Assembly (NCBI GenBank): GCA_044892525.1
Contig: CM097887.1
Span: 43,896,001 to 43,960,000 of the forward strand
Origin: Schmidtea polychroa
Taxonomy: Eukaryota
DNA length: 64,000 nucleotides
Direction: 5' to 3'
Part shown: positions 732 through 26,664 of the stretch, one piece after another
How positions within the stretch are numbered: position 1 is the first letter of the stretch
Layout of the letters: every line of letters starts with the position of its first letter
Notes under the pieces: model-generated
Told to the model about the DNA's origin: nothing
Database searches by the model: none
Seen by the model: the letters and a program-made list of their open reading frames with translations, nothing else
Program-made: the position numbers and the translations under genes

Positions 732-3700
732 TGTTGGGGTTACACCTCGGCTGACCATTCTACCATGTTGGCGGGTCTAAGGGTTGATTGTCCATCTCGA
801 ATAAAAGGTGCCACCGATTTGTCAACCTGGAGTGAAACCCCACATAACTTTCTTCCAACATAGTGCCCGTGAATCACTTCACGTTGGTACTGCACTATGC
901 AGGCGAGACGCCAGCAAGCAGGTGAGCTTCTGCCTTAAAACTACTCCTTGCTGAGGCCTCGACTTCCCATTCACGACTGCCGATAGAAGGGCTTACGTCC
1001 ATTTCCTTACACAACCACCTATCAGGATTCGCTGAATGCAAATTGGGAAATTCTCACTAGATCTTGCGGGTTCTCTACTCAACCCACTTAATTCAAGTCT
1101 AATTATTCATGAACGAAAACGTGTAAGACAACAAGATTTATTAATTTCAACGTTATGACACAAGGATTCAGCTGTACTCTTTACTAATGTTTGTCGAAAG
1201 AAGAGAAAACATCATAATCAACATAGATCGGATCCTTGTTCCTCATCCTGACCGCCACTGGGGTTTTATTGTTTCTCCCATTCAGTGTCGGCGAATAATT
1301 CGTCGAGGTTGAAAAACTCGGAAGCGTTCTCTTCCCACCTTACGCCAGCGGCTGATATGATTCGCGCTGAGGGTCCCGTTGTTAGGTCGATGGACACGTG
1401 AGAGTTGCCACCGTTGGTTGAGTCCTCTATTGATGGGATGTTTGGCTTTGCAGTAGCGCGCTCGCGCTGTCTCTTCTTGCGCTCTGCACGAGAGAGTTGT
1501 TTGCGCTTGGGTTTGCTTGAAGATGCCACTTGCAGAAGGGTGACTGATACAGATGGACTAGCAGTGGGGGGCTTACTGGTACCCGTGATGACAACATCTG
1601 GACGCTTGGGGGACCATTCGGTTTCGACGCAGTCTCGGCACGGTCTCTTGAACGGTGGAGATGGATTCGAGGAAAGGTTGTGATGAGGCGGAAAGATGTC
1701 ATCGGCCTCTCGGATGGGAATCTGCACGATTTTTCGGGTTGTAGCCGCCTGCACGTAAACCTTATGCAGTGCCTCGGATTGTTCTCTGATTAGACTTCTT
1801 TGGGCACGGCTCTCAGATATAAGCGCGTCCCGGCAATGCTCGCTACGATCGAGCTTCTTTTGGATCTCTTTCATCCGAGCGGGACTAAACCATGTCCCTT
1901 CCAGCTCGTCTATCTTCCTCTTGTAACGTCCAATCTGAGTTTGTAGGTCCTTTATCACCGTATTTTTATCCGCGCACGAGAAGCACGGCCGTAATGCTGA
2001 TTTAGTGGTTGGTAGCATGCTTGCTATAAATAATACTAATGAAATGGAGAACATACGATTTTAGAATAAATTAGATACGACCCGCGTCCATTCGTGGATA
2101 CTTGACCGTCGAAAAGGAGGAAAACTTATTCTACAATCCGGTTTTACTACGGATCTTAGTTGTTAAAACAGTTTATTTAACCAAATGCCATCGGTTTGAC
2201 GCATGTTATTAACTTTGACTATCTATTGATCTAACTGTATGCATGAGGGACGTAATAATTGATAGGGTGTAAATATAATATTGGTGAAACAATATAATAA
2301 TGCTTTAGTAGAGGGACATTATAGTATGCGACCAAACCTTGCTATATGTTATCTATTTTAATTTATTAAAAACAAATTACTATCGCTCTCAACATATTTC
2401 TGATTCGAAATTTGTTATTGGAAGTGCACTTTTAATTCGGTAGTGAATGTGATTATCTATGTTGTCTACCATTGGTCTGAAAATATGTGATGAGTTTACA
2501 TCAGCCATTACTTTAACACCCTCATGGAAAATCCCATCGGTCATAACATATATCCAAATTTACGGATACTGCTGTCGACTGGTTGATTACATTATCGACC
2601 TATTGTGAATGTCACGTGTCGCGACTACTATGTATGCTAGTCTGATATTCTGTGCTCTCACCACATGGATTCGTGTATGGCTACTATCTTATCTCACTCA
2701 CTTGGTGTATGCCATTTTCACGGTGATTTTATCGATCCTGCTGTCGTATGATTTTCTCTGCACAGTGATTTATTTGAGTTATGATCTATGCTACCGCCAG
2801 TTCTCATCGCGGAGTTTTACCCTTATCAACTTGTGTGAATGATCACCATCGTTTGGAAATTTATTGGATCTTTTCAGTGATCGTCGAGGGAATAATTCTA
2901 CCAAATACTGGAGCATATTACTACTCTCGTCATTCTACTCGGATTTTCCTATTCAGATGTAATGCCGTCTCGATGAAACCTGTCCTTTTCTCTCAGGTTC
3001 AATAATTTGGATATATACAGTGATGACCTGGCTCTTATTGTAGAAATAAATGTTATTAATTAAATTTGGTGATATTTTACCTGTTTATAATTTTTGAAAT
3101 AACTAAGTCTATAAAACTTTCTGATTATAATATTAGAGAAGTTTTCGTAGAATCTCGCATTTTATAGTTTCGAGTTAGTTAAAGTTTTTAGAATACTTTC
3201 GTAACCTGACATACAATCTGGACAGGTTAGATGACATTGGGTCTATGATAATGGAATTTCATACGAATTTAGTTCTACTGAGTCCGGCAAATAGACGTTG
3301 TCGCAATTAATTTGATAAAACCATGTTTCCAGATGAAGCGTACTATGAGATGTTGTTATTTTTGACGAAGTTCACTAAATCGTGGTCTGGATCTCTTTTT
3401 TCAATAGGGGTAAGACTTACGAAAACGACTTGACGAAAGAAGAATGCGACGCCCTCAATCACTGTGCAAATCCTTGAAAATCCCTTCATTCGTATGACTA
3501 TCTTTGTGAAATCATTGTCTACCGGTTATTTTTTTTATCCATACCCCATTGTGATAATTTAGTCGCATCTTCAGCGATAGGACCCGTGAAGAAGCCTTCA
3601 CATTTCGGCCCAATCTAGCTGCGCGATTGAAATACTCCATGTCCACCGGCTGAGCTCCCGAAGGCACCTCATACCATGACATGGAGTATCTCAACTCCAC

Positions 3701-4574
3701 GTTACTCGTTAAATGAAAATTCATAAAATCTTTAATTCAAATAAAATACGGACATCTGGATAAAAATATTTTATTGATTCTGAAATACTTAAATAATACA
3801 AATTCCATCAATACGTTAAAGTTATTAAAATGGAGAATCAAATGAAGAGAGTTAACTAAAATGTTTAATCGTTAATATTTAACATTATTATTAGCTTTGC
3901 AAATACTTAAATAAATCTATAAACAAATGAAATACCCCTTACTATTGTTAGGCTGAGTCAAAATTCAATGTTGTTCGTTCCAAATAGTTCTAATGGTGGT
4001 CCGTTGGATGTCGATTATTGTGATGAATGGTATTTCGGTCTCTGAACTGGTTTTGAATAGTTGTGGAGTTTTCTGAATGACGGTTGCTTGGCTAGTAGTG
4101 TCGATCCTATGAAATGCTCGGGGTTAACAGTAAGCAGTAAACATTCTTTCTTACCTATGAAATGCTCGGGGTTAACAGTAAATTTAATGTTTTTGGTAGT
4201 TGTATATATATCAAATTCTTATTTGTGCGGACCAATCAGAGTTGAGTACCGCTTATTTCTATTAATTTAATATAATTTTCTTGTTTTTAGGTTGTTTTTT
4301 CCTTATTTTCTTTATTTTTAATATGTTTTTCTATTTATTTCCTTAATTTCCTTATTATTTCTTGAATTCCTCTTTATTTATTTGTCAACTTGTTCTATTT
4401 TAATCTTTTCTTAATTTTATTTTTTTGTTTTAATTCTTATGTCTTAATTATTATTTTCCTTATATCTTATTCTATTTTATTTCTGATTTTATTTATTTTA
4501 TTTTTATTTTTCTTAATGTTCTACTTCCCTACTTTCTTATTTTTCAACGATTAAATTTTCGACTCAGCCCAACA
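732..4574 (-). repeat. 3' LTR (3,843 bp)
   Basis: Matches 26672-30514 wherever compared; every ORF-track protein inside it is reproduced identically at +25,940; 7-bp terminal inverted repeat TGTTGGG/CCCAACA. Confidence 0.97.
1266..2054 (-). CDS. LTR-encoded 262-aa protein (hydrophobic N-terminus, two CxxC, coiled coil, Arg/Lys-rich motif, acidic-aromatic C-terminus); function unknown
   Basis: Intact ORF in the sense orientation of the element; MFSISLVLFIASML, CFSC, CRDC, KPKRKQLSRAERKKRQRER, EFFNLDELFADTEWEKQ. Confidence 0.75.
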   Translation of the reverse strand: MFSISLVLFIASMLPTTKSALRPCFSCADKNTVIKDLQTQIGRYKRKIDELEGTWFSPARMKEIQKKLDRSEHCRDALISESRAQRSLIREQSEALHKVYVQAATTRKIVQIPIREADDIFPPHHNLSSNPSPPFKRPCRDCVETEWSPKRPDVVITGTSKPPTASPSVSVTLLQVASSSKPKRKQLSRAERKKRQRERATAKPNIPSIEDSTNGGNSHVSIDLTTGPSARIISAAGVRWEENASEFFNLDELFADTEWEKQ

Positions 4575-4803
4575 AATCACTCGGGGACCCATCAAAATTG
4601 CGTCCCGCAATTGCATAATTAACTTAATTCATTCATTCAAAAAAAAAAAATATAACACGAACACGGAAAATTATACAACAATGATAAAAACTTTATTGTA
4701 AGATCAAGGTCAAAGCAAGACCAAGCAAGTATCACTTAAGGTGATAGTTGGTACATACAATAAAAGTTTCCACATATAATAACACAAATGTTTGAATTAG
4801 AGT

Positions 4804-5472
4804 TTATGAATTGTTAACCATTGATGCTTCTGCTGGCGGCTGTTGGTTGGTTTGGGTATTGATGTTGAGATAGGTCTGACTATTAGATTTCGGCTGGATT
4901 GGTTGATTACTCGGGGTTCGAGGTCGGAATGGGGTTGGGTTAAGATTTGTCAGGGGCACTTCTTGAGGATTTTGGTTCGAGGTTACTCTTATTGATGTCG
5001 AGATTCTACATCTATTTCGAACTTCGTAAATTTTCATGAATATTGGTAGACATAGGAGGAGGGTTTCTGCGATCACCACATATATGAGATAATGGGCGTT
5101 ATTGATTTCGGGAGGTATTTTTGGCTTTTCTACCAGATTTCCAAAATTCTCTTGTTGCATTTGTTGTTCCAACTGGTCGAATTGTTGAATTTGTTCGAGG
5201 ATTTGTTTGTTTATCATTTTACAAATGGGATTCTTTTTACACATTGTTTGGATGTTGTTGATGTGTGATCGGGTTGATTGAATGGTTTGGATGATATGGG
5301 TTTTTACGGTCATCGGGTATGTGCATTGACTGGATTCTTGTTTAGGTTCTTGATTTTGATTTCGGTAATCTCGTACGATTTTCGGTTGGGCGTCTATTTG
5401 TTTGCTCTCCATCAGAATCATCAATACCATCATTGTTATCATCATCTCGCCTCGCATGATACTATTATACAT
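4804..5472 (-). CDS. Accessory type I membrane protein (222 aa; likely start at Met 5457 or later)
   Basis: Met-rich signal MMITMMVLMILMESKQIDAQ, Cys-containing helical ectodomain, TM YLIYVVIAETLLLCLPIFM, Pro/Gln/Asn-rich tail. Confidence 0.75.
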   Translation of the reverse strand: MYNSIMRGEMMITMMVLMILMESKQIDAQPKIVRDYRNQNQEPKQESSQCTYPMTVKTHIIQTIQSTRSHINNIQTMCKKNPICKMINKQILEQIQQFDQLEQQMQQENFGNLVEKPKIPPEINNAHYLIYVVIAETLLLCLPIFMKIYEVRNRCRISTSIRVTSNQNPQEVPLTNLNPTPFRPRTPSNQPIQPKSNSQTYLNINTQTNQQPPAEASMVNNS

Positions 5473-5512
5473 TCATTATGTTTATTTACAATTGGTTTTA
5501 ATGACCCTTAAT

Positions 5513-6265
5513 TTAATGGTTCTGATTTGGATTATTTTCGCCGATTCTCATCAAGGTGGACTCTGCTTTAATTACCCTGTGTCTTAACTCGGGCAGCATT
5601 TCCAATTGTCGGTCTTTTTCACGGGCTTCTCTCTTTAGATGTCTAATTTCTTTTTCCAAGCGTCTAATTTCTTCCCTTTTCTTTTCAAGGTTTCTTTTTA
5701 GCTCGATTTGTAGGAGATCTTGTTCGTTTTCTTGCAGGTAATTTTGTTGTTGATGTTTTCTTTCTATTTCTCTATATTTGCGGACCCACTTCCTCATTTC
5801 TTTACTTTCCCGTTGGTTTTCTTCTAGTTGTCGTTTTAATTTATTTATAGCTGTTTGGCGCTCCTTCGCCTCAGTTTTCCAGTAGTCCTGGATTACCTCC
5901 TTTGCTTTGAAGCTTGCCCTCTCTTTCCATAGTTCTTCCGCTATCTTTTCCCAGTTTTTCCCTCGCTTCCTTTGTTCGTGTAGCCATTCATTTTCCTCTT
6001 CCGTTTCTCTTTTTATTTCCCCCAACGCTTCGCACTCTTTCTTTAACACCTTTATCATTTTCCGGTCCTCTAGGTATTTGTTTATTAATCTCCCGTTTTC
6101 GTATTTCTCTTCCCGTAACTCGGCCTTTAGCGTTTGTGTTTCTGTTGGTTCTGCCTCAATCTCTCCCTCTTCTACGTCGCTCATAATTTCTATCATTTCC
6201 TCGATTTTCATATCTATAATATGTACAGTTAATGGTGCGCTATAGTGCGACTTATACGTATACAT
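5513..6265 (-). CDS. Accessory coiled-coil protein (250 aa; likely start at Met 6211)
   Basis: Long Glu/Lys/Arg-rich heptad-like ORF, co-oriented with the element; no recognisable domain. Confidence 0.7.
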   Translation of the reverse strand: MYTYKSHYSAPLTVHIIDMKIEEMIEIMSDVEEGEIEAEPTETQTLKAELREEKYENGRLINKYLEDRKMIKVLKKECEALGEIKRETEEENEWLHEQRKRGKNWEKIAEELWKERASFKAKEVIQDYWKTEAKERQTAINKLKRQLEENQRESKEMRKWVRKYREIERKHQQQNYLQENEQDLLQIELKRNLEKKREEIRRLEKEIRHLKREAREKDRQLEMLPELRHRVIKAESTLMRIGENNPNQNH

Positions 6266-6382
6266 TGATATAAAATTTAATAGTTTGGGTTACAGTCCCT
6301 TGAATACTTTTACAATACTTTAATTTTTTTTTTGTTTGGGATATACGTCCCGGTTTTTAGTTTTTCATCTTTTCATCCACCC

Positions 6383-7492
6383 TTATACGAAGGTTTCCTC
6401 CTGGCCTACATAACCTTCATCACTATCGACCGCGGGATGTAACTGTATCGCAATAGGGTCGTATGGTAGGTAATATTGGGGGATTTGAGCTCTCAATTCA
6501 TTAATTTCGTCTCTTAGAGCTCGAGTGATGTTCAATTCCTCGTCGAGCAGATAGGTGAGATACCTTGTCTCTTCGTCTTTCGCCTCTATCTGTTTGTCTA
6601 GGGCCTTGATTTTCTCGTCGCCCTTCCATTTTTCAATTTCTATTTCTAAGTTTTTAATATTTTCGGTGTACATTTTCCTTTCGTTTTCTAATTTTCTGTT
6701 TTTTCCCGCTAGGACCATGTTTCTTTGTTCCAGCGATCCTTGTAATCCATTAAGGTCTCTTTTCATCTCTTCTACCTGATTTACTAATTCCACAACCCGT
6801 CCCGCTTGTTGGGTTATCATCTCTTCCATTGCGGCATTCTCGTGCTCTCTTATGTCGCACTTCATTGCCAAATGTCGCTCAAACTCCATAGCCTTTGTTT
6901 GCCAGGTTTGGCTTCGGGCGGCGACCTTTCTCAACCTTTTCAATTCTTCCTTTATTATTAAATTCTCCTCCCATTTACCTTGTTCGCTTTCATATCCGAG
7001 TCTCATGGGCAATTCTTTCATCTCTTTTTTCATTTCTCTGTTTTGTCTTTTCCATTTTCTCGCTTCTGCCACTAAGTGCATCATTTTCCTGTCTTCTATT
7101 TGTTTTTCCGCTTCGCGCTTGGTGTTCTCATCGGTAAGTCTTTTTCTCGCTTCCTGCACTAGCTGCTTTAAGTAGTGGCTGTGTGCTTCTTGGCGGGTAT
7201 TTTCTAGTGACGCCCATTTTGATGCTCTTTTGCATGCTTCTGCTTCCGCTCTTAAGTTGTGTATTAACCATTGGTATTGACTATTCTCATCTTCTCTAGT
7301 TTCTTCGATGTGATTTCGGGTGAGATTAGTTAGTTGGAACATTACTTTGTTCCATTTTTTATTATGTTCTCGGGGAATTTGTGTCTTGTTGACATTGGTT
7401 GGGGCTATCGCAGTTTCGGTTATTTTCTCTTGTGTCATCTCTAAATCATAGACATCGATTAATCTTTTTATTATGAAAAGGAATTTATTCAT
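6383..7492 (-). CDS. Accessory coiled-coil protein (369 aa; likely start at Met 7438)
   Basis: Long charged heptad-like ORF, co-oriented with the element. Confidence 0.72.
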   Translation of the reverse strand: MNKFLFIIKRLIDVYDLEMTQEKITETAIAPTNVNKTQIPREHNKKWNKVMFQLTNLTRNHIEETREDENSQYQWLIHNLRAEAEACKRASKWASLENTRQEAHSHYLKQLVQEARKRLTDENTKREAEKQIEDRKMMHLVAEARKWKRQNREMKKEMKELPMRLGYESEQGKWEENLIIKEELKRLRKVAARSQTWQTKAMEFERHLAMKCDIREHENAAMEEMITQQAGRVVELVNQVEEMKRDLNGLQGSLEQRNMVLAGKNRKLENERKMYTENIKNLEIEIEKWKGDEKIKALDKQIEAKDEETRYLTYLLDEELNITRALRDEINELRAQIPQYYLPYDPIAIQLHPAVDSDEGYVGQEETFV

Positions 7493-7630
7493 TATTTACT
7501 GTTTCTTGGGAAATTTTCGCATCATTTTTGGGTTTTCGTATTTAGGGTTTTCATACTATTATTATATAATATTTTATTGGTTATATACACCGATATATAC
7601 AGATTATTATATACAACATTATTCGATTGG

Positions 7631-9019
7631 TTACTCCGTTCTACCCTTCTCCTCTTTCCTCACGGTCATCTTGATATATATGGTATCATTTCTCGCCATA
7701 TCTTCTACTCTTTGTTGTGAGATGAACGTAGGTGCTCCTGTTGCTGATCCTTCTTCGTTGAGGGGCCTCTGGTAAGCTATTTGATTCCCCGTTGTTTTGA
7801 AGCTTTGCTCATGTATACTTTGGTTGTTCATCAGAGTAATATCGATTTTTGCCTGGAACGGCCATTCTAATATTTCGTCGTATTCTCCTTTACATAACAG
7901 AAAGAAAATCGAAAAGTGCGTATCCAATCCGGTTCCGTCCCCGTTGGGATATACCTTCATTTTCATTTTGTACCCATTTTTCCAAGAATGGAATGTAGGA
8001 CTTGTTATTCTTGTCTCTTCTCCGGTTTTTGCTTTTCGTATTCTTTCTTTTACTCCCGTTATTTTCCATATGTAGGGTGCTGTTGGGGTTATCTCATTTA
8101 GATTTATTTCCCGTATTTTCTGATGTAGCTCCTTGGCCTGATTATTACTGATTTCTGTTCGGTTTATTTGCATCTTTATGTTTGCTCGGGCTTCTTCGAA
8201 CGCTTCCCTTTCTTCTAGTAGTTCTTTGACTAACACTTTCAACGATGTTATCTCTATCTCCATTTGTTTTACTTTCTCTTCGCTTTCTTGTAGCGCAGTC
8301 GACCACATTTCTGCGTGAGTTGAAGCATTTCCTACTAAATGATGTGGTAACTCACCTCGGTGTAGTAGTTTCTGACAACCCCATCTACCTAGTACACATG
8401 TCATTCTTTTCTTTGCGCATTCCCTTAGATGCTGTGCCACCTTCATTATTTCCCCTTGGTTACATCCGTTTGGGCATTCCCCACTGAACTCTGCACATAC
8501 TCTCTCCTCTTGGACATTGTGATGTTTGAGGGTGAGATTTATCCACGTATCTATTTCTCCACAGTATTCACATCTTTCCAATCTCTCTTCACACTGCCTT
8601 TGATGCTCTTTTTCTTCGCTTGCTCGAATGGTTTTATGGCACCTTTCACACTGGCCAATTCTGTACATACATTCTCCCATATGTTGTACTACCTTCCATA
8701 TTACTCCTTTCCATTCGCATGGGGCATTTTTGCATCCCAGGTTGGTGTTTAACATGTCTTTCACTGCGGCTTTATCCTCGTTAGTGTCTTCTAAACTCGA
8801 TATTAGTGTCTCTTTACACACCGGGCACCTCTGTGGTCTATTCTTTATTGCTTCACTGATACATTCTTTACATACTCTGCATCCACATTGCGTTTGGTGA
8901 GGTTCCTTTAACAACTTTTCACATATTCCGCACATAACATGTTTGTGTATTCTGATCGTTGTAGATTTTCGGACTTGCTCGACAATCTCTCTGAACTCTT
9001 CTCTTTGTCGTTTATCCAT
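7631..9019 (-). CDS. TRAF-family protein (RING, TRAF zinc fingers, coiled coil, MATH/TRAF-C), intronless, inside the retroelement
   Basis: CGICEKLLKEPHQTQCGCRVCKEC...CPVC RING; C-x-N-x2-C-x-W-x-G...H-x3-C zinc fingers; YIWKI...SPTFHSWKNGYKMKMKVYPNGDG...HFSIFF...GEYDEILEWPF TRAF-C signature. Paralog cannot be assigned by eye. Confidence 0.93.
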   Translation of the reverse strand: MDKRQREEFREIVEQVRKSTTIRIHKHVMCGICEKLLKEPHQTQCGCRVCKECISEAIKNRPQRCPVCKETLISSLEDTNEDKAAVKDMLNTNLGCKNAPCEWKGVIWKVVQHMGECMYRIGQCERCHKTIRASEEKEHQRQCEERLERCEYCGEIDTWINLTLKHHNVQEERVCAEFSGECPNGCNQGEIMKVAQHLRECAKKRMTCVLGRWGCQKLLHRGELPHHLVGNASTHAEMWSTALQESEEKVKQMEIEITSLKVLVKELLEEREAFEEARANIKMQINRTEISNNQAKELHQKIREINLNEITPTAPYIWKITGVKERIRKAKTGEETRITSPTFHSWKNGYKMKMKVYPNGDGTGLDTHFSIFFLLCKGEYDEILEWPFQAKIDITLMNNQSIHEQSFKTTGNQIAYQRPLNEEGSATGAPTFISQQRVEDMARNDTIYIKMTVRKEEKGRTE

Positions 9020-9104
9020 TCTATAATTATATGTACAAATAGTTCTTATCGATACAGGTTCGATATTTTATTTACAATTATTTACATTTTAAGCTAGGTT
9101 TGGT

Positions 9105-9488
9105 TTAGGGTTCGGAAGAGTCGGCTTCGTGCCCGCTCTCCTCTCTATTCATTAGCCATTCCGACCAGTCTTCTATTTCTGTCTGTTCTGCTTCCTCCCT
9201 CATTCGGTCTATTTCAATTTCCTGTCGACGGCTATATTGGGTTATCCTCTCTATCTCTCTTTGCATTTGTTCGATTTTTAACCTCTGGTCTTCAATTATC
9301 TTCAAATAACTAAATCCTCTGTTCATACTCTCGATCAGGTTTCTGTGCATCGTCAGTCCTTGTTCTTGCAAATTGGACACTAATTGTGCTAATACGGCAC
9401 ATTGTTGCTTCCATAATTCTTCAGTTACTGTATTGTGGTTCATTTCGTTATTTCCTTGATCCATTCCTAATTTATATACACTTTTCAA
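9105..9488 (-). CDS. Accessory small coiled-coil protein (likely ATG start at 9464, MDQGN...)
   Basis: ORF track starts at a TTG; first ATG at 9464; helical, acidic C-terminus. Confidence 0.62.
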   Translation of the reverse strand: MKSVYKLGMDQGNNEMNHNTVTEELWKQQCAVLAQLVSNLQEQGLTMHRNLIESMNRGFSYLKIIEDQRLKIEQMQREIERITQYSRRQEIEIDRMREEAEQTEIEDWSEWLMNREESGHEADSSEP

Positions 9489-9624
9489 CTCTTATGTAAA
9501 TTTAATTTTATTTTATGATTCCCGTTATTGTATAATATTGATACCGCGCTTATATAAAGATATAGTACTGTTATATACATAAGATATACTTACTTTTTAC
9601 AATTATATACAGTCATATTCCTTT

Positions 9625-10635
9625 CTATATACGTGAGTTTGGAGGGCGCTGAACGTTCCAGGCCTCCACCCACTGTCCTTGTTTGATATCACTTGGTCGT
9701 TTCACTCGATGTTGGAAGTTTCTGATTCGGGTCATTTCTAGTTCTCCGCGATGTCGTTTATCTTTAATTATTTTTATTGTTCCCCCCGTTATGATTAGGA
9801 ATGCCCCTGTTATTATTATCCCACTGATCCACATCATCTGCTTCACGCTTATACTCTCTGGTTTTTCCTTGTTTGTTAATGTTGATATCGCTTCTGTACT
9901 TTTCTCGTTTCCTCTTTTGCCATTTCCTTTCATCATTTCCCGTATTCTTGCTATTTCCTCGTTCATACCCTCCTTTGCCATCTTTTGTATTTTTTCCATC
10001 TCTTCCTCCGAAACATAGTTGTCCTGAGCTTCCTCACCAGTTTTCTTGTGCTTTCCTCCTTCGTTCTTTTCGTCGTGGTTTTTTCTTTTCTTTCCTCTTT
10101 TCCCCGGGTATCGTCGGCATTCTCTTTTTGATTCATTCCTCCAGATACAAACCGTGTATTCTTTCGGCGGCTGCTGCTGCGTCACATATTGATGGCATCT
10201 CTCACCTGGTCCTAATCTTGAAATACAGACTTTGTGCTCTTTTCTAGGTTGGATCTGCGTTATTACTACTTCACCACCTTTTCCTAGGTGTACCTCTTTT
10301 CCTTTGACGTTCGTTATTCTCTTCCCGTCTCGATTTCGGTATGCTTCTTGTATTCTTACTTCTGTTATTGGTTCTGTGTCCTCATTTATCAGTACTAGTT
10401 TCTGATACGCTCTAGACATGCATCTTCCTAGTATGCACCTTTCCTTTAAGTCCCATTCTTCCTTTAAATCCCACTGCTGCTCTTGTGCTTGCTTTCTCTT
10501 TTCTTGTTTTAGTTCATCCTCTTTGCTATCTTGATTCTCCGCTTCTTTGGTTTCTTTTATCGTTCTCGTCCCTCCCTGAGCTGTTACTAACTCTATCATG
10601 GTAAGCATAATTATCATTAATATCATATTTGTCTC
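9625..10635 (-). other. C-terminal type I membrane protein module of the polyprotein
   Basis: Signal-like MILMIIMLTMIELVTAQ (about 10580-10635), Cys-containing ectodomain, TM MMWISGIIITGAFLIITGGTI (about 9775-9840), short basic tail. Confidence 0.65.
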
Positions 10636-13600
10636 TATTTCTTTGTTAGTGAAAGGTAGGCATACCCTCTGTTTTCCATTATTCGATTTTTCCTCCTCTT
10701 TGGTCTTGGTTCTCGGGCTGTTTCCCTCTCTTTTCGTATCCGAATCCTTGTTTTCTGGTTTACCCTCCTCCGGTTCTCTTTTCTCTTTATCCTCCTTTCG
10801 GCCTTTTCCGTTATTGTCATCGTGTTTATCTCCCTCGCTGTCATTTAAAATGTCGTCCTCGACATTTATATCGTTCAATAATCTGCGATATGCTGTTAGC
10901 ACTCTGTTTCTTGCTAATTTTGCTTCGAATTCAAACTCTTTTCTACCCGTTGCAGCATGTCTCTTTCTATTCCATTCTTTAACTAACTCTCTCAATTGCA
11001 TACGACGATGTTTCCCAATTCGTTGTTGCTCGTTCTGATTTTGCGTGAATTTTAGGTCTTCTCTATTTAATACTACTAAAATAATTTTCGGCGTCCCCCC
11101 CTTAGTTAGGGTATTCTTTACCATCGCATTTTCTCCGTTTTCGTAGAATTCGTTTACATTTATCGCATATTTATTATTTGGTGGTACTCTCCAGGTTAAT
11201 AATAATTTCATTGCTTCTAGATTTTTCCGTACCGTATTCCATTGAAACTGAGATGTGTTTTTGCACATATTTTCAACTTCTTCTTCTGTCGCATTTTTGC
11301 AAATAAATCTGATCATTTCTAAGTTTGGCTGTATGGTTGCCCAGTCCAAGGTGGAATTTCCTTCATTGGACCTTTCGTCTAGTTTCGATCCTGATTGATG
11401 TAGGATGTGGAGTGTTTTTGGGTGTATTTTCGTTATAGCTGCATACATCATGGCGGTTTCACCTTGTTCATTTTTCGTGTTGGTTTCCTCGCCCATCTCC
11501 CCAAGGATTCTCATGATCGTTATTGCTCTATTCTCTTTTGCAGCTAGTATTGCTTGTTGTAGGGGTGTTCGGGAATCCTTCGTTACCATCGTAAATGCTC
11601 GAGGCAAGAAGGTTTTGATTTTCCCGATATCTAAACCCGTGGTTTGATCTCTTGCGTATGTGTGTACGGCTTTTATTATTTTGGACAATATTATTTCGTC
11701 TGGCAGCTCTAGCATTTCCTCAAAGAACACTTCTTTTGCTTTGCGTATTATTGCCTCTTGATCTATACTCATTGATTTGGTTTCGATGACGTTGTTTGTG
11801 ACCGTTCGGTTCGTTGTTGACTTTGATTCCCTGGATTTCTCATACCTTATTTTCGTTTTCTTTCCGTTTGGATTATTGATTCGTTCCTCTGCTGTAAGTA
11901 TTTGGATAATATCCATGTAATTCTCGCGGATGTTATTCATCGTGTCCATCATATATAACACACTTACTGTTTCCCAATATTTATGTCGTACTTGGTTAGT
12001 AAATTGGAATAGTGATTTTTCGAATGTGTCGATTCGCTTTTTTGTTAACTGTTCGTCTTTGTGATTTGTGAATTTTATCCCTCGTTCTAGTAATTGATTC
12101 GGGATTTCGAATAAATGATGTCCTTTCATAGCTTCTCTCATCAGCGTGTTCTCTCCTCTCGTGAACGCTTCGTTTACGTTGATCATATAATCGTTTCGAA
12201 TTGGATTTCTCCATGTAATTAATATTCCGGTAATTGTCGTCAGTTTTTCTTTGATCGCTGTTAGCAATCCATCATACATGTTTCCGACTTCCCGATTGTC
12301 CTCATATGATAGTAGTTCCATCAATGACGTGAACGCCTCGGTACTTCTCCCTCTGATAGCATGATGTAGAGCGTTTTTCCGCTCGTGGTCTTGTGTAGTT
12401 ATTTTCGATCCGGTATCGAGTAATGCGGTTATAATGTCTTTTGTTTTGCCTCTGTTTGCGGCTATCATTAATGGTGTGTAACCTTGGTTGTTTGTTTGTT
12501 CTGTTGATCGCTTGCAGTCGTGAAATGCTTCTATTGTTTCTAGTATTTGCTCGTTGTTACCTACTTTCATGAGTTTGTGTAATGGTGTGTCTCCGTAATG
12601 ATCTGTTATTGTAAATAATATTGGCCATTGGCTTTTGACTACTCGCAATAATGGGTGTGTCCTTTCTCTATTTGCATAGTTCTCGATCATCGTCAATAAT
12701 CCTCCTAATATTTCGAAATCTAATCGATCTTTTGCCCATCCAGGTATTTTAATTTTTACCTCTTTTACAATCTTTTCCGCTTCTGATGGTTGGATACCTA
12801 ATCGTCCAGTGATCGGTTCTGCGAGTTGTTGCATCATGTTCATTCGGTAGGTTTGCGAACGTGTGGTTAATGTACGGCCTTCTGGTTGACTAGTGGCTGT
12901 TTTTGGAATTGATTTGCATCGTGCCACGTTTACGTATATTGGTCTGGTAAAGGGGTTATTTACCAATTTCACTCTTACATTAGTTTCGCCTACGAATAAG
13001 ATCTCATATGGTCCTTTTCCGTTGCGTTGTAACTTTTTTGTGGTTCCTGGAATTAATTCCGGGGTTTCTATCATTACCCAATCACCTGTTTGGAACGTAT
13101 GTTGCTTCACGTTTTTCTTTCGATCGTGTAAATCTTTATAACTTTCCTGGTAGAACTTGATATTTAATCCCGCAGTTTCCCAAATTTCTTGCATTCTTTC
13201 CTTGAATTTCGTAACATAATCATCGATCTCCATATACTGCGATATCGGTGGTTGGTATTCCAGGTCCATTGGCATATTACATTCTCTTCCGTACATTAAT
13301 TTGAATGGGCTCATTTTCGTTGATGCGTGAATCGACATTCTGTACGCCATAAGACATAGGTTTATATATTCGTCCCAATCTCGTTGGTGACGGTCAACGT
13401 AGTTTGATAACATTTGTATAAGTGTTCCATTAAATCTTTCCGTCATCCCATTGGTTTGAGGGTGGTATGGAGATGTTCTTAGTTTTGCTATTTTGAAGTA
13501 ATTTGTTACTTCGCTCATTATCTCACTCATAAAATTTGTTCCCTGATCGGTTAAGATTTGTTTTGGTGTTCCATATCGGCAACATATCTCTTCTACCAAA

Positions 13601-16600
13601 ATATTTGCGATTGTTTTAGCTTTTTGGTCTGGCATCGCGAATGCTTCTGAGAATTTCGTAAGAAAGTCTGTGATCACCAGAATGTAAACGTTTCCTTTAT
13701 CTGACTCTGGTAGTGGACCAACTACGTCCATGGATATCATTGTCATTGGTTCTATTGGTACTGGCATTGGCGTTAAAGGTGCTTTCCATTTCGATCCCGT
13801 ATTCTTCCTGGTTGCACAAGTTAGACAATTTTTTACCCATTCGGTTACATCTTCCGTTAACGTAGGCCAAAAATATTTCTGTTTCATTCTTGCTAACGTC
13901 TTTTTCGATGACATATGTCCTCCCAATCTCCCATCGTGATATTGCGTTAGTAACTCTTTTCGTCGGTTTTCCGGTATACACATTAATCGTTTTTCCCCAT
14001 CCATTATCAGCAACCAATCTTTCTCTATAATATATCGGTGTCGGTGTTTATCCATATGTTCTTTTAATTTTTGGTCTTTCGCATATACATCTGTCTGTCC
14101 GGTTTTTATATAATCGATAATTTGTTTTAATTCCGCGTCCTCTTGTTGGTCCTTTCGCAATTGACAGAAATCCAAATCTTCCGCTACTATTAAGCATATG
14201 CGTTGCATTTCTGAATCCACCAAATCTGGGAAAATAAATCTTGACATACAATCGGCGTTGGCATTTGCTCTTCCCGCTTTAAATTTTATAAATGGGGAGT
14301 ATTCTTGCAATTGCATGGCCCATCTCATCAGTCTACTGGACGCTTCTTTATGTTGCCCTAACCACACTAATGGTTGATGGTCTGTGGTTATGCATATCTC
14401 ATGTCCCCATAGTAAATATCGGAAGTGTTTGATAGCTTGTATTATAGCCAATGCTTCTCGTTCTGTTACCGAATAGTTCTTTTCGTGCTTTTTGAATGTT
14501 CGACTGTAATACCCGATTACTCTCTCTTTTCCCTCATCGTCCAATTGTCCCAGAATCGCGCCTGCCGCGTACCCGCTTGCATCCGTTGCCAATAGAAATG
14601 GCCTCTTAAAATCTGGGTGTACGAGGATAGGTGCTTCGATTAGTTTGTCTCTCAGCGTTTCAAACGCCTCTTGTTGTTCCTTCCCCCATAAGAACGAAAT
14701 GTCCTTCTTTACTAATTCCTGGATTGGTTTTGCAATTCCTGCATAATTTTTGATAAATTTGCGATAGTATCCGCATAATCCTAGAAATTCCTGAACTTGG
14801 GTGACAGTTTTCGGTGCTGGACATGTTTTTATTTTCTCAATGTTTCTTGGATCTGGCTCCTTTCCTTTAGCTGACACTATGTGTCCTAAAAACGTGACTT
14901 TTTCCTTTGCCCAATCGCATTTTGATGGTTTGAGTTTGAGTTTCCACTGTCTTAATCTAATAAATACGTTTCGGATATCTTCTAGATGTTGTTCAAATGT
15001 CGCTGAATAGATTAGTAAATCATCAATATATACCATACATTGTTTGATTCCATGGGTGACAAAGTTCATACACCGTTGAAATGATGCTGGTGCGTTAGTC
15101 AGTCCAAATGGCATTTTCCTGAATTGATATAGATCTCGTCCCAACGTGAAAGCTGTTTTCTCTTTGTCCTCATCTTTGACTTTAATCTGCCAGTATCCAC
15201 TTTTTAGATCTAAAGAAGTAAAATATGCTGCCCCTTGCAACATCAATAACATCTCATTGATGTCCGGCAATGGGTAGGTATCTCTCTTGGTCACTGCGTT
15301 TAACTTCCGATAATCGATACAGAATCGTTGGGTGCCATCTTTCTTTTTTACCATGACCACTGGGAATTGCCAGGGTGAGCAACTTGGTTCGATTACTTTT
15401 GCGTCTAGCATCTTTTGTACTTCTGTTTCGGCTATTTCTTTCTGCATTTCTGCTAGCTTGTATGGTCTCAATGCAATTGGGGTTTCGTCTATGAGTGGTA
15501 TTGCATGTAAGGTAACATCACATGTACCCAAGTCTAAATCTGAGATGGCGAATATATCTTTATATTCTACCAACAATCGGTGCAATTTTTTCTTTTCATC
15601 ATTCGTCAACAACATACTATCCATTGTCCATAATTCATCATCTTTGATCATCTCGTTGGTCACTTTCGGTAATTCTATGTCCATCATTGGGGTCAATCTT
15701 CCCAATTTTTCGTTCTCATAAATGATTTTGTCTTCCTCTTCGAAATTCGTGATGTTGAGCGGTATCACTCCTTCTTGGTTTATTGTGATTATTTCTCTTG
15801 CGAGTGGTAATTCTCGTCGCTTTTCAAATGACTTGCTTGGTTCAAAGATAACTTCTCCTTCCATACCCGTATCCACTTTTATCTGACAAATCATCTGTGA
15901 TTTTGCTGGTACTATTATTTTTTCTGGACATCTGATGACTGCATTCATTTTGCATATTCTACCGGTTTTGTCTTTTAAACACATGGTTGTTAAGTCAATT
16001 ACGACTTCTTTTAACAATTCTGGCATCAAATCCGTTCCGATTATGCATGGTACGCTAAGTTTTGGTATTACTGCCAAATACGTTTCAATTTCGTTGTCCT
16101 GGTATCTCAATGTAGTCCACCATCTTCCGACCACGTCCACTGTTTCTTTACTACATGCTATGATGTGAATTGTTGTTGATTCGATATCCTTCCAGTGTTT
16201 ACTGGGGATTTGATTAATCGCTATCGCTGATACATTAGCTCCGGTGTCTATCATAGCATTGGTTTCTTTACCATTGATTTGAATCATAACTGTTACTGCT
16301 GGACCTCCAGGTAAACTCATCGCTGCTATTGTTCTTACGTCATCTGCTTGATCTACACTTTTGGTACGTCGTGTTGGCATATAATGCATACCGGGTTGAC
16401 TCGGTAATTGCGGATACATATTTTGTGTCATGGTCAAAGCTGCTTGTGGTCCCACGATATCCGGTGGTATATAGCTTCCATTGGCGATCCAGGTGTTTGT
16501 CTTTTCCTTTTCCCAATATGGTGCCGTTTCCATTGGTTTTTCGTTTGGGTTTCTGTTTGGATAAAGACATTTATCGTTCCCGTTATCATCGTCGTCACTA

Positions 16601-19600
16601 TCGCTGTTAGATGATTGGCTTCTAAATCGGTCCAAGAATTTTGGCTTATTCTTTTTCAATTGTCGTCTTGTTGCTTCATCGTACATTACTTTCCGGAATC
16701 GTCTGCCTACTTCCTCGTCGGTTCCTTTAATCTTTGTTAATATTTTAATCAATCGCTTTATCCGATGAATGTCTTTTGAGTGGCCATGTAATACCATGGT
16801 CTTAGCTAAAAATGGTAAGAAGCCTACTATCATTTTCCAATTAACTTTCTTTTCCCGCTTGTATATATCGAAACAAGCTAACATTTGTGTTAGTATTACT
16901 CTGACTATCTGAATTATGAGTATGATCCCTAATATCCCGGCCATCATTTGTCCAAAAACTAAGAATCTTCCCCACATTGCTTTCATCATGTTTGACGTAG
17001 CTTGTTGAAAATGGTCTGGCGATAATAGCAGCTCGTAATTCGGGCCTGATTGATAGTTTGTGCCCCCAGTTATTGTTACCATATTAGACAAAATGGATTC
17101 TCGTCTGGCTGGGAAGAGTACGTTAAGTCGTGCTGTTTCTAGATCTTCTGGGGAATACATACCACCGTTTGACACGTCTATAGGTTTGAAATCCAGCTCT
17201 GTGGCGAGTTCTATTAATCCAAATTTCTTGGGCTCCTCGGATATGGTTTTTCCCGGTAACATCATCCATTTCCCATCGGGCCTTTCATATAAAGGTCCGT
17301 ATGCATTAGAACAGTTAAAGAGATTTGGGTAGAAACCCACTGGATTCATAATTCTAGTGACTGGTTGGACGAATCGATTTTGTCCTTTATAACGGATTTC
17401 TAATTCATTTGCACATCTCTTTTCGGGTAGTATGGATTTTTCTGGCATTCGTGCATACGTCTTGGTACACTGGTATGTGTACATCACTTCTCCTACCATT
17501 CTACCAAAGTGTCCATCTGGTAATGGGAGTGATGGCATCGTGTTATCTGGGTGCGTTATCGCAATAGCTAGCTTTGTTTTCAATATTTCTTTATTCAATG
17601 AACAATCGTTTTGTATTAGATCGTAATATACTTTTTGCAAGGTCGTTTGTCCGCGATGAAATAGAAAATCCATTTTATTATTTGCATATAAGTATAGTTT
17701 TACGTCCTCCGTTGCTATCTTTCCCACTGCTCTATCGATTATTTGTCTCGACATATAGATACCTGCGTAATTGGTTTTATATACTATACTGTCACATTTG
17801 GTGGTTTCTTTCTCTTTGATAAATCTCATACCTAGATCTGGATCGTCTGTGATTAATGCTGTTGGTGTCTTCTGCGTTGAAAGTCTCTTTTCTCTGGGAG
17901 ATGGTGGCATTGGTTTTCCATTTCGCATTCTCACTCTGTCGTTTCCATCCTCGTCGTTCTCATTCTCATATATTTCTCCTTTTACTTCATTGAACAAAGC
18001 ACTTTTTAACAGTTGGAGTCGGCATTTTTGGGTATTAGCTTCATAGATTATAGTTGATACTCCTGTCCTGCATACGTTTTCTGTAGCTCTACACGTTGGG
18101 TTGGTCTTCATTTGGTAATTATTTGCGTCAAATTGCGCTTCGTATTCTTTTAATTCGACCGTGTAAGACTCGATCACTACAACTCCCGATATTACCTCGC
18201 CTCGGATCGTATACGTACCTCCGTTACATGACCCATCTGATGATTTTACTTTTCCGGATACGTAAACACTTTCGGTTTTAATCATTCCAGTTTGTCCGTG
18301 AATTGTCACTCCGTTATGCATTTTTAGCGCTCCGGTTCTAAATAGCTCTTTACAATCCTCTCGTTGTATTGATACGATTTCTTTATCCAGACCGGGTAGT
18401 ATAAGAGTCGAATACGAATATTGTCCACAGTAATATGCGAGTACCTTTTTTGATACTACGCATTCCCTTGCTTGCGTTCTGATGAAATCTGATTCTTGAT
18501 ATACATGGTAAGTAACTTTTGTTCTCACGATGTCCAATTTGTTGGGTGAGGCTTGTCTGCATTCTTCTATGTCTCTCAATGAGTATTTATCTCTCATTAT
18601 CATGTTATCACAATCGTAGATGGTGAAACCTGTTGCTCCACTTGTGCACAACATCCATATCATCATAGTCATCATTAACGAATTTATTGATGCTTTTCTG
18701 CTTGCGGGATCTTTCATCGGTAGTTCCCATTCTAGTTCATTTAACAGTTTTTTCAATCTAACTTGCATCGACCTTTCTTGCTCATTTTTCCGTGGCGCTT
18801 GTATCAGTCTTTTCCATCCTCCTGCACGAATAATGTGTGGTTCAATAGTATTCTCTATGATTGAAACGGTCATTTCTACATGATTTGCAAACTGTTTATT
18901 TGGTATTTTCCTCGCAGCTAGTCCCATCAAATTATACATCAAATAAGTGATTACCACTAGGTGATGCTCGTCATCATTTGCATTTGTCGTGAGCTGCTCA
19001 ATCACTCTCTTTGTTTCGTCCCAATCCGTTTTGGTGGTTTTCGTTTTCTCTTTGATTAACTTTGGGATTATCCCCGAAATGGTGTGCCATAATTGTCTAG
19101 CTTCCGTACTGGCTACTTTCCGTTGCCACAAACGTCTAAGTTGTGGGTTTGTTATTATTAACATATCTTTTAACAATTCTCGTATCCATTTTTCTCCTCT
19201 TTCGATCGTTGGTTGGGCTTCCTTTAGATCCCATACTATTTTATCCAATTTTTCTAATCGAACTTGCCCTTGTTCTTGCTTTAATTGTTCTTTGGTTTTG
19301 AACTCAGACTTTTCTCCTTGTTTCTTGGGTCTTCCTTTTGCCCGTTTTTCCATCATCGTTCCGGCTTCTCTGGTATTTTCGTAATTCGGATTTCTTTCGT
19401 TATCCGTTCTGGGTAATGAGCTATCGTTATTTCTTAGCCACTCATTCCATTCGTCTATTATTTTGTCGGTTTGACTTTCTGGTGTTACTTTCGTTGGTTC
19501 TCTTTGCTTCTGGAATTGTTCATCCGTTTCGGTTTCCGTAGTATTGTCGATGATTTCTTTGATGTTCAGTTTCGTTGGTTGTTGATAACTCGTTGATGGC

Positions 19601-22600
19601 TGGTTATTAGTCCACATTTCGGCTCCTGTCGGCCATCTCACTAATAGCGGTGATCTTTCTCCTGGTTCATCGTCACTATCTTCCAGGATTATCTCTTCAA
19701 CTTCTTCAGTTTCATTAGATTTACTTGGTGCTTTGTTCGGACTTGGAGTACTCAAACTGCCTTTTGTTGGTTTAATAATTTTACTTTTCCTTTTTAACGG
19801 TTTTCCCAACGTTTCTGCCATTGTTAATACATTTGTCTCTTCCAATCTCATGGGGGTTATCCCGACGTCTGCATTATCGTCTAGTGATTTTCCGAACAGT
19901 TGCAGATGGAATGGAGTTTCATATGCTAATTCCTTTTTTAATTCTCTAATTTTTGTTGTTGGATGCACCTCTAGTTCCTCGATGCTCTTGTCTGGATACT
20001 TGATTCGGATGTGATACCTCTCCTGGGTGTCTTGTGCCCATTCCTGATTTCTCCATTTTCGAATAATTTGTTCTAGCTGTTCTGGATACCATTCATTATA
20101 TTGCCGGTATTCCTCTATTGCCTTTGCCATTCCTCTCAGATTGTGGATGTCCTCTGATGTCTTTAAGATGATGTTAGCCAACGCTACTACTTGGCGTCTT
20201 TGATTTTTCGCTCCCATTGCTAAGATATCGCCTAATTGTTTATATCTTTCTTTCTCTTCTCGTTCTCTTGCTTCCGTCGCTTCCTCGCCGTCCATATCAG
20301 CATATTCACGTTCCTTTTTCCTCATTGCATGAATATGTCTCGCTTCATTTTCGCTTTCTGATGTGACATCCGTCTCGCCTTCGTCATCTGATGTCTGTTC
20401 CCTTGCTTCCTCTTCATATTTTGGAGGTTCCTCTTCTTCTTCCTCCGATTCACTTTCTGTCTCACCAATGTCTGTTTCCACGAAGGTTCCTTTCCGGATT
20501 TCCCATTCCTTACTTTCTGCATTCCACACTCTTTCCCATGGGGTTCGTCTGCAGGATCTGGTGCTTAATTTCGTGATTTTTCCTTGTAGTTCTTTTTCTT
20601 TTAACCATTGTTGGTGGATTTTAATTATTTCCGTAGATTTTTGATATAACGTTTTCATCCGGTCTCGTATTTCTTTTTGATAGGTTACATCTCTTGTTCG
20701 AAATTCATCCATTGGTACTATCCTGATTATCTGGTGATTGTCCCACATACCCATTTCGCTTAACGAGGTGTCGTCCTCCGCTCGTAATATTATCTTATCG
20801 TACATCATGACTACATCATCCACCATACCATCACTACTTTCGCTACGTACCTTTTCCGTTATCTCTTGGTTTATTTTTGATACCAAGTCATCTACTGTAC
20901 TCTGATTGCTCATTTTTATTCGTCGTTTTTCTTCGTTCGGTAACCATATGGTTATTTCCAACCTCTGTGGCTGGGTTTCTTTTAACCTTCCATATTTGTG
21001 GATCAAATTTATGGTTCTCCAATCACTCATTCGGAGCATTTCTGTATCTCGCAACCGGCTCATTAGTTCGTACATGGCTGGGGCTCGTCTGGTGATGAGT
21101 AAATCCCAGTTGTCTTCTACTTGTTCTTGAATTTGTTTGATCAGCTTATCCAGGTTTCGTCTCAGAGTACATTGTTTTATTTGTTCTAATTTCAATTTGA
21201 TATTAAAATCATATTCTGCCTTGGCATCTTTAGCCCAATCGTAAAGGTTGGCTGGTTGTTTTTCTTTATGCAACTTCAGTATTTGCGTTTCTCCTGGCCA
21301 TATTAGTGCATCTACTAAGTGCATATCTGGTTTGATCTGTTCTCCTTGGTATTGATACAGATATTCTTTCTTTCTCGAACTTCCCAAATGCTCTCGTATC
21401 CAATCGAAAAGTTCGTCGGTGACTGTATTTTTTATCCACATTCTTTCAAGTCCTCTACTCGTTCCGATTTTTATTACATACCGCGTGGTATCGGCCTGCT
21501 TCATTTTTTCCATATAATTTTTTATAATTGATTTTTCCTCGTTTGGTATTAAATCTTTCTCGTTTCTTTCCAATTTCATCACTTTTTGCACGAATCGCCT
21601 GAATGGTATTACGTCAATGAACTCTTGGTTCCTCACTACTACTGGGAGTATTTCCGCTACTTGTTTTATCGCTTCCTCCTTCCCTTTTCTCAACTTTATT
21701 TCGATATCCTCGTCTTCACTTTCGCTGGTTATCTCGCTTTCGCCTTCTTCCTCTTTGATTTCCCCTTTTGGAGGTTCGCTTATTTCATTCAGCTGTAGTA
21801 TTTCTCCACCCAAACTACTTACATAGTCTTCTTCCTCGTCTGACGATGCTACATCTTTTGTCCTTTTCATCATATTGATTTGCAAGTTTCTCATCCTTGG
21901 TACTCTCTTTAGTTTCTTTCTTTCGAATATCGTTGTTTCTTCTGATTCTAATTCCTGTAGCATTTGGTGGTTTAGTTGACTGGTTTGTTCCTTGCTCTTG
22001 TTATTTTCATCTTCTGTCTCGGCTTTCGCTTTATTATGTTCTTTTTCGATTTTATCTTTTATCTTTTTCCAGAATATTTTCTGAATTCTCTGGTTTCCTT
22101 TTAAAATCGTGGTTGAATTCTCTGTTTTCATTTCCGTTGTTATTTCTTTTACCTTTTCTGGTTCAGTCATGGGTACTACCCTTGGGCTTTTCCCGTAATT
22201 GTAGCAATACTGGCTCTTCATGTCTTTTACTAACTTCATCATATTTATTCGCAATGGTTGTTCTTGTCGTTGTTGGTTGCGTTCTTGTTTTATCCTCTCT
22301 TCCTCGGCCTGTAGCCTTTGCCATTCTTGTACATGTTGATGCACTTCATAATTGTTGAGATTTTCGGTACTCCTCATCATACGTATATTCTGGGTTTGTT
22401 GTGGTGCTGATTCTTGTCTTGGTCTCATCATTTGTTGCATCATCTGTTTCATCTGCGAAATTTCCTGCATAACGTTCATTTGTTTTCCTTCGTTAGGGTT
22501 ACTTTGTCGTTGCGGATTCGCTATATAATTATTATTTCGCTGTGGTGGTCGTTGTTGTTGGCCCCTTTCTCGGCAATCTCTGGAGATGTGACCTGGCTGA

Positions 22601-23478: not shown

Positions 23479-24785
23479 GATTGGTGTTCTAGGTTCGTCT
23501 GTTTCTTTTAAATTGTCTAACGATGTGACTAAACTTTGGGCTGATAATTCCTCGGTTGACGTTGCTAAACTATTAGTGATATCGGACAGACTTTCTCTAC
23601 TTCGAGATCGACTAGGGGTATATCCGAGATTTTCTTGGTCAAATATGGGTACTTGATTGGTTCTTCTGGATCCTTGTGATATTCCTCTTTGATGTTTAAT
23701 GGATCGTCCTCTTTTGAGTTGTTGTAATTCGTCTCCTGAAAATAATACGTCTCCTGGCTTACTAGAAGATCTAAGATTGGGTTTATCCGTGATTCCTTTC
23801 TTACGCTTCTTGGTAATTAGCGGCTATTGAATTGGACGCGTTCGGTTCTGATTGTGTTTCCTTCGATAAATATTCTGTATGAATCTGCTACTGAGATCCT
23901 GAGGAGATTTACTAATCCTTGGCAGATGGCTGCTAATACTTCTTCCGTTCTGGAGTCTTCCGGTTGCTGTGTCTCTCGGTGCGGGTTCTGAATGGATTTA
24001 TCCTTGGTTGATTGTCGATTTCTTCGAATTCCTTTTGTGCAGGTTCTGGATTGTCTTGGTTGGCTGGATTGGCTTGATATCTAAAATGAAAAAATGATCT
24101 CGTGTTGCATTTGCTTACACGACTTCATCATTCTTTCTACAACATTCAAAAACAGACGCCTTTTAGGTTTCTGTTTGTGCTTCCCCTATCTTTTTGTGAA
24201 ATCCTTTCTGCGGGTTATAATATCCCATCAGCCCGTATTTTCCGTCGATTTTAAATTATCTATATGGGGTAGTAACAATTATCTATAAAGTCGTAATAAT
24301 TATCTATTCGTTATCAATTATAGTAAAAATAGGTCGTTGTCAGTCTCTGCTTATTACCCCCCTTCGTTTTCTTATTCCTTTGCGCTGTTGTCGCTGTTTT
24401 ACTTTTCGTATTTACTATTATCCCACTCGGTTCTACTCTGGAACCGGTAAAAATACATTTTCCCGGTTTACCCAAAAAAAAATTCCGTAGAGTTTCTCTA
24501 CTTCACTGGGATCCCTTTAATTAGTTAGTTACTTTCCTCTTTACTCATTATCATCATTTCATCTATTCTTTATTTTCTATTATCTCTTTAATTCGTTTCC
24601 TTCTTCCCTTTCCTTTTTCATTATAATCTTATTTTCTTTTCCACGAGCTCGTTTATTTCCTCTCTAAACTCAAATTTTCAAAATTACATTCAATTTGTTC
24701 TAGCTAGCTTTAATATTCCATATCACTAGTAATTTAAATATTATCTCATTGTAGCTTAACTGCTATCTCTCGCTTTTCTAGGCCT

Positions 24786-26329: not shown

Positions 26330-26646
26330 AGCTGTTGGAAAAGTAATGTTTTAATAATATGTAGTAAATTAATAGTTAATTCGTTAATTGGTTTCTTTAA
26401 CCATTGTTAATTATTTAATTTGACTACTTTATCTCCTTTATTTATATATATCCTTAATTTTTCTATTATCTACATTTTGATTTTCTCTACTTAGTTCCTA
26501 ATATAATTTAATAATCAATAGTCACTTTGCATTCGTCAAGCAATGGTCGGTTGAAAATAGAAAATCGATGTGATAAATCCCTTTAATTTTGTATGAAAAT
26601 CCCGGTGAATTTCGCATTCGTTAATAGAAATTTCGATCGACTGTAG

Positions 26647-26664
26647 ATCCCGGCTGAGCCCCCA
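26647..26664 (-). promoter_or_regulatory. Primer-binding site, tRNA-Pro type
   Basis: Minus strand TGGGGGCTCAGCCGGGAT, 7 nt after the 5' LTR; 16/18 identical to the MLV tRNA-Pro PBS TGGGGGCTCGTCCGGGAT and complementary to a ...CCCGGCTGAGCCC-CCA tRNA 3' end. Confidence 0.88.

Follow-up and report, generated by a model that had tools for sequence, protein, structure and literature searches.

The closest described systems are the planarian Burro elements, from Burro1 (GYPSM1) to Burro4. These giant gypsy LTR elements are about 30 kb long and have long LTRs, a polyprotein of 4,600-5,100 aa, an env gene between gag and pol, and ankyrin repeats (PMC6431247). MATH_TRAF_C, BIR, BCL2-like and ankyrin motifs in Burro are already in print (PMC6431247). 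In Burro1 the MATH_TRAF_C motif lies in the polyprotein, and for an element of Dugesia tigrina an accessory ORF is called upstream, for which the cited part of the source names the MATH domain alone (PMC6431247). The published function belongs to the IAP of Burro1 (B-IAP; PMC13465017), an element-borne, host-derived apoptosis regulator which reportedly protects stem cells from apoptosis (Lee et al. 2026, as cited in PMC13465017). Additionally, cell survival in a planarian needs two host TRAFs (PMC7586133). The presence of a TRAF in Burro as such is largely anticipated in print. In a literature search that had Grohme 2018, Lee 2026 and the supplements outside its scope, we found no published account of a full-length Burro TRAF under selection in a family lacking a BIR-IAP, nor, with Grohme 2018 and Lee 2026 again outside the search, of clustered Pumilio-type octamers around a Burro TRAF. 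What may be new is thus a complete TRAF protein kept by selection, the fact that it does not depend on the IAP, and the clustering of octamers.

Element anatomy and the TRAF slot

The window, i.e., the whole 64,000-nt stretch analyzed here, contains a complete element in a host tandem repeat (Table 1). A 4-bp target-site duplication (AAGG) is found on both sides, and because the two LTRs are 100% identical, the insertion is recent. After the 5' LTR follows a primer-site-like stretch which we take to be tRNA-Pro-like; the 64,000-nt window itself holds no tRNA genes. The polyprotein runs from gag and CCHC knuckles through a mononegavirus-type fusion glycoprotein to protease, RT, RNase H, integrase and ankyrin repeats, so that the env-like glycoprotein lies in frame between gag and pol. 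Judged by its sequence, this is the anatomy of planarian Burro elements, which makes a planarian the likely host. The BCL2-like motif reported in Burro (PMC6431247) has a sub-threshold counterpart here (PF00452, E 0.024, under the cut-off), for which no sequence match to a BCL2 protein in PDB was found. Where Burro1 carries MATH_TRAF_C in its polyprotein, profile searches detected neither MATH nor BIR in the polyprotein of the window element, and no BIR or second MATH anywhere in the element (best BIR E 0.083). Compared with the Dugesia tigrina element, the window element has a complete RING-to-MATH TRAF, encoded by a downstream ORF. The earlier note had placed this TRAF in a retroelement, which is correct, without recognizing the known Burro family.

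Table 1. Features of the 64,000-nt window, with positions counted from its first letter.
Feature	Position	Strand	Remark
Whole Burro-type gypsy LTR element, 29,785 bp	732..30516	-	in host tandem repeat
3' LTR, 3,845 bp	732..4576	-	
5' LTR, 3,845 bp	26672..30516	-	TG...CA ends
262-aa ORF in each LTR	1266-2054 and 27206-27994		no Pfam family
222-aa ORF	4804..5472	-	signal-like start and single hydrophobic stretch (by eye)
250-aa ORF	5513..6265	-	no confident family
369-aa ORF	6383..7492	-	no confident family; homologue in second Burro family
Spacer downstream of TRAF	7493..7630	-	3 sense TGTAHATA octamers (7608-7615, 7594-7601, 7582-7589)
TRAF, full length, 462 aa	7631..9019	-	Pfam, PDB matches, AlphaFold, Foldseek
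Spacer upstream of TRAF	9020..9104	-	3 sense TGTAHATA octamers (9079-9086, 9069-9076, 9030-9037)
119-aa ORF	9105..9464	-	no Pfam family; homologue just upstream of TRAF in second Burro family
Spacer past polyprotein stop	9465..9624	-	3 sense TGTAHATA octamers
4,617-aa polyprotein	9625..23478	-	Pfam
BCL2-like stretch in polyprotein	about 18814-19035		below cut-off
74-bp tandem repeat, 6.5 copies	24786-25265		between RING ORF and polyprotein
161-aa ORF, C-terminal IAP-like RING	25844..26329	-	Pfam, PF13920, E 3e-11; without BIR
Ordinary gypsy pol fragment	36140-38441	+	
Multi-exon host WD40 gene	40010-44443	+	presumably Rae1-like
Multi-exon host AAA ATPase gene	49218-54540	-	presumably ClpX-like
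Broken RT-like element	60680-61800	+	presumably Penelope-type, from its look (by eye)

A relative of the ORF in the LTRs, 67% identical, was seen near one of the host TRAF loci (L033).

A second Burro family was found through a MATH-profile search of the same genome (best 150 of 1,551), at L082-L084 on contig C1 (about 21.53-21.56 Mb). It has a 4,791-codon frame whose RT is 54% identical to that of the window family and whose polyprotein holds an internal MATH-only module, followed on the 3' side by a homologue of the 119-aa ORF, a full TRAF and a BIR-RING IAP. From its sequence, this family matches the published description of Burro1 (internal MATH and BIR). Its TRAF is full length and occupies the same slot, at 29% identity to the window TRAF. 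The side-by-side arrangement of TRAF and IAP recalls the TRAF2-cIAP pair. In contrast to the second family, where the BIR-RING ORF comparable to B-IAP follows the TRAF, no BIR-IAP follows it in the window family; the copy alignments run from TRAF into the 369-aa ORF and leave no room for one. Since the slot is shared and the window family is BIR-less, the TRAF predates the split of the two families and has been kept without the IAP.

Domains and binding surfaces of the element TRAF

The protein is encoded in a single reading frame and comprises a RING (about residues 29-68), zinc fingers (about 96-235), a coiled coil (232-306) and a MATH domain (about 316-455). Pfam E values are 9e-5 to 1e-4 for the RING (PF00097 above its cut-off, PF13923 below) and 2e-27 for MATH (316-453). 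The best PDB matches of the C-terminal half are the TRAF domains of TRAF3, TRAF2 and TRAF1 (E about 1e-27), and the N-terminal part matches RING-zinc-finger pieces of TRAF6 and TRAF5. The AlphaFold model (pLDDT 91.8, pTM 0.47, input alignment of 42 rows) has the RING, the zinc fingers and the MATH sandwich, with a helix of 75 residues (232-306), and the leading Foldseek matches to this model are all TRAF domains. Because pTM is 0.47, the relative placing of the domains in the model is not fixed. From its fold, the TRAF domain would be expected to form a trimer. The earlier observation of a complete TRAF, from RING to TRAF-C, in one frame is thus confirmed.

The element-like codon style reported earlier was also found. 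Third-position A/T is 0.44/0.16 in the TRAF and 0.45/0.17 in the polyprotein, compared with 0.30-0.38/0.30-0.44 in eight host TRAFs, and a codon use score places the element TRAF toward the polyprotein by +66 bits while the eight host TRAFs score -15 to -91. Sequencing runs presumed to be RNA gave short, lower-identity pieces on the TRAF, which are no evidence either way.

Functional residues were surveyed in 87 intact 462-aa copies, of which 71 are distinct and many near-identical. The zinc-ligand Cys/His residues, the RING surface (I32, I58, P66, V67) and four MATH residues (Y357, F372, F407, Y416) are present in 86-87 of the 87. The fourth RING ligand is Cys instead of His, as in 14/15 planarian-type host rows and 3/21 outgroup rows. 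At RING position 34 the element TRAF has E or K where TRAF6 has Leu, and the aligned host TRAFs likewise lack Leu at this position.

Receptor-binding hot spots were taken from PMC6125299, with their numbering transferred to the element TRAF through an alignment to TRAF2. Both the hydrophobic pocket (F410, L432, F447, F456 and C469; here F372, I/L394, F407, Y416 and A429) and the polar pocket (R393 and Y395; here K/R355 and Y357) are kept. The serine triad S453-S455 is lost. It reads Q413-I414-A415 in the window copy, is variable among copies (Q/L, I/M/L/V, A/C), and contains no serine in any of the 87 intact copies. Host relatives mostly have the first triad serine only, and the element TRAF is without that one too. 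Losing the triad is as compatible with a new target as with a damaged site. Taken together, the kept RING and pockets and the lost triad would be better explained by an adaptor or ligase that is active but has altered its specificity than by a pared-down decoy.

The element TRAF resembles mammalian TRAF2/3/5 in its succession of RING, zinc fingers, coiled coil and MATH and in the two conserved pockets, and differs in having fewer zinc fingers, Cys for His in the RING and no serine triad. By its place in the phylogeny, it is not the orthologue of any single one of these. Architecture, length, the Cys-for-His exchange and tree position are shared with planarian TRAF-like proteins (PMC7586133; PMC6109357; Dendrocoelum), from which it is set apart by an identity of 27-31%, by the codon style of the element, by its dispersal in at least 92 copies and by the loss of the first triad serine.

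Retention, selection and descent

A TRAF-based search of the same genome, in which the best 92 of 1,922 candidates were scored, returned copies that are all full length and 94-100% identical, 91 of them stop-free; the genome thus holds at least 92 dispersed element TRAFs. To avoid selecting on TRAF itself, a further set was defined from the polyprotein, using its last 200 aa (best 150 of 731). The TRAF lies at the expected distance in 86 of these. Of the other 64, the TRAF DNA is at least 83% present in 61, 36% present in one and absent from two, and an ORF of at least 450 aa is found in 45/64. The two TRAF-less copies (L132 and L133) lie 11 kb apart and share a deletion that joins the TRAF start codon to LTR sequence. 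Overall, 147/150 copies carry TRAF (at least 83% of its DNA) and 130/150 have an open full-length frame, both counts referring to the best 150 of 731. The copy sets are the top-scoring ones and contain many near-identical members, which are therefore not independent.

Relative to the window copy, dN/dS is 0.13-0.29 in seven copies at 87-97% amino-acid identity. For one copy (L135) the bootstrap range for TRAF is 0.09-0.18, with comparison values of 0.03 for the polyprotein end and 0.18-0.20 for the two ORFs neighboring TRAF. Seven copies of a subfamily at 69% amino-acid identity have a dN of 0.18 and saturated dS, i.e., a dN/dS of about 0.07 or less. The RING, the zinc fingers and MATH each show constraint, which is as strong on the RING and zinc fingers as on MATH. 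The element TRAF is under purifying selection. Such selection means a benefit to the element and does not indicate the pathway. This agrees with the earlier view of a TRAF that has been retained and adapted, as judged by the 147/150 copies, the selection and the codon style; the check across the 150 copies speaks against a recent passenger.

The earlier note took the intronless state as a sign of retro-transduction and set it against the intron-rich host genes of the window. The WD40 and AAA genes are indeed multi-frame, but the contrast is weak, as several host TRAFs of this group are single-frame too. Among 30 loci from the MATH-profile search (best 150 of 1,551), six carry RING to MATH in one frame (L031, L032, L033, L034, L036 and L038), and so does a tandem host TRAF pair on contig 4, the single-frame statement concerning the coding region only. 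Most other loci of the 30 form a cluster in which MATH has a frame to itself, about 180-210 codons long. L031 and L032 each have one full-length copy, apart from short repeat matches at the L031 5' end, and none of the single-frame host TRAF genes lies beside a Burro polyprotein. Because host TRAFs of the same group are also single-frame, the intronless state is not evidence of retro-transduction. The host genes thus have equally unbroken frames, but they are far from near-identical to the element TRAF, the six full-length paralogues being 27-31% identical.

Two further features of the host loci were observed. A dispersed repeat about 260-380 bp long (L217-L222) overlaps the 5' end of L031 (2753-2914), and 38/40 scored matches fall on this piece. 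On contig C2, at about 105-124 Mb and 1-5 Mb, host TRAF-like genes with introns are arrayed in large tandem clusters (L037-L060), and these form a clade apart from the element TRAF.

Relatives for phylogeny were collected by a full HMMER search; a word-index protein search gave one relative among 3,769 candidates. The careful tree uses 22 of 46 rows, leaving out three host rows with long branches, incomplete proteins, 12 outgroups and close pairs. This tree unites the element TRAFs in one clade (100/99), which falls within a planarian-type TRAF clade (98/99) that includes two Dendrocoelum records ('TRAF-2' and 'TRAF-4'). The element clade sits in the basal polytomy of this group. Grouping of the element TRAFs with TRAF2-like outgroups was rejected (AU p 0.0006), and a single clade of all host rows was not (AU p 0.45). 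A quick tree of all 46 rows recovered the same groups, and a MATH-only FastTree gave weaker support (0.82-0.91). No host gene is nested inside the element clade in these trees. The 'element' label of three rows (P0004, P0017 and P0022) rests on tree position and make-up, and an unusual amino-acid composition common to the element rows could make them group too strongly; for the two families found here, synteny is an independent argument for the grouping. The idea of a retro-transduced host TRAF therefore holds as far as relatedness to the host TRAF group goes, while intron loss proves nothing, and the phylogeny places the element clade among planarian-type TRAFs while identifying no donor among the host genes. 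The simplest interpretation is a single, old capture of a host-lineage gene, with transfer from host to element as the probable direction.

Proposed role and alternatives

The full-length TRAF is a conserved Burro accessory gene. We consider it somewhat better than an even bet that it was captured once from the host long ago and acts as an active, pro-survival trimeric adaptor or ubiquitin ligase. The protein would be translated from a message of its own or from a spliced one, trimerize through the coiled coil and MATH, and bind a partner set shifted from the TRAF2/3 motif, as the serine triad is lost and the two other pockets are kept. The intact RING would ubiquitinate or scaffold a ligase. 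An intact RING does not equal ligase activity, as the RINGs of TRAF2/3 are conserved yet are weak or disputed E3s. Together with the IAP-like RING, BCL2-like and ankyrin modules of the element, the TRAF might damp death or stress signaling during element expression. A pro-survival role is our best guess because two host TRAFs are needed for survival and the Burro1 IAP is reported to be protective; counting against it, the window family lacks the BIR-IAP, the carrier of the published survival function.

The earlier note left open a decoy or an active E3 in TNFR/Toll signaling. As a dominant-negative decoy, the element TRAF would join host trimers or occupy receptor tails and so block an innate-immune or death signal, which the retained coiled coil and MATH fold would allow and the missing triad would suit. 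We regard this as unlikely, since purifying selection on RING and zinc fingers matches that on MATH, and a decoy could shed both, as the MATH-only module in the polyprotein of the second family illustrates; a RING-less decoy in particular is disfavored. The E/K at RING position 34, which might point to a decoy when compared with Leu in TRAF6, loses force because the aligned host TRAFs are without Leu34 too. A role in the element's own life cycle, outside TNFR/Toll signaling, is rather less probable still: here the TRAF would ubiquitinate or scaffold element proteins or a host restriction factor and thereby serve assembly, trafficking or escape from silencing. Its strict linkage to the element across families, the altered peptide site and the env-like gene are consistent with this, but the element's cargo taken together (IAP-like RING, BCL2-like, ankyrin) suggests death signaling, and the tail of the 222-aa membrane ORF contains no TRAF-type motif conserved across subfamilies (by eye). 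This tail differs between subfamilies (by eye), and the 222-aa ORF was rejected as an element-encoded TRAF ligand as its tail is not conserved.

Descent could also have run in reverse or both ways, with an element TRAF as old as the host single-frame group seeding some host genes by retrotransposition. Several host TRAFs with unbroken coding frames, the basal polytomy and the unrejected host monophyly would permit this, but it appears improbable, given that the element clade contains no host gene, the host genes have host codon style and the ultimate source must be a cellular TRAF. That the TRAF is a recent or neutral passenger with no function has next to no credibility. We found no support for it beyond noting that 3/150 copies have lost most or all of the TRAF, and retention, dN/dS well below 1, synteny across families and a nearest host paralogue at 31% identity stand against it; with TRAF in 147/150 copies and dN/dS at 0.13-0.29, it is refuted.

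The favored reading, an adaptor or ligase that promotes survival, may have a regulatory side. In the 540 bp of the five spacers that separate the 3' ORFs (window 5473-9624) there are 10 sense TGTAHATA octamers and no antisense ones, whereas 2,000 dinucleotide shuffles of the spacers averaged 0.49 and reached 4 at most, the motif having been chosen after sight of the spacers. TGTAHATA corresponds to the Pumilio element UGUANAUA, and neoblasts require planarian Pumilio (PMC5855632). Six of the 10 octamers sit 14-45 bases past a stop codon, and the 69% subfamily and the second Burro family share the octamer positions (L083; L186). As a control, the 150 bases past the stops of 21 host TRAF genes hold one octamer. 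The octamers could instead be polyadenylation or TATA-type signals, a rival reading against which AATAAA and TATAWA show no enrichment in the spacers. In its widest and doubtful form, our proposal is that Burro's own ancient TRAF lineage would be a second pro-survival module besides the IAP, here independent of the BIR-IAP, gated by Pumilio in stem cells through the octamers after the accessory stops, and possibly the source of host single-frame TRAFs.

A full TRAF that is selected across families, also where the BIR-IAP is missing, adds a second testable gene to the relation between host and transposon, in an animal for which RNAi is a routine method. The 'expanded' TRAF/MATH counts of planarians, 99-282 transcripts (PMC6109357, PMC7586133), may include element copies. 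Planarian piRNAs target TRAF and ankyrin messages (PMC6824462), and, as a speculation, the element TRAF might be a reason for this targeting.
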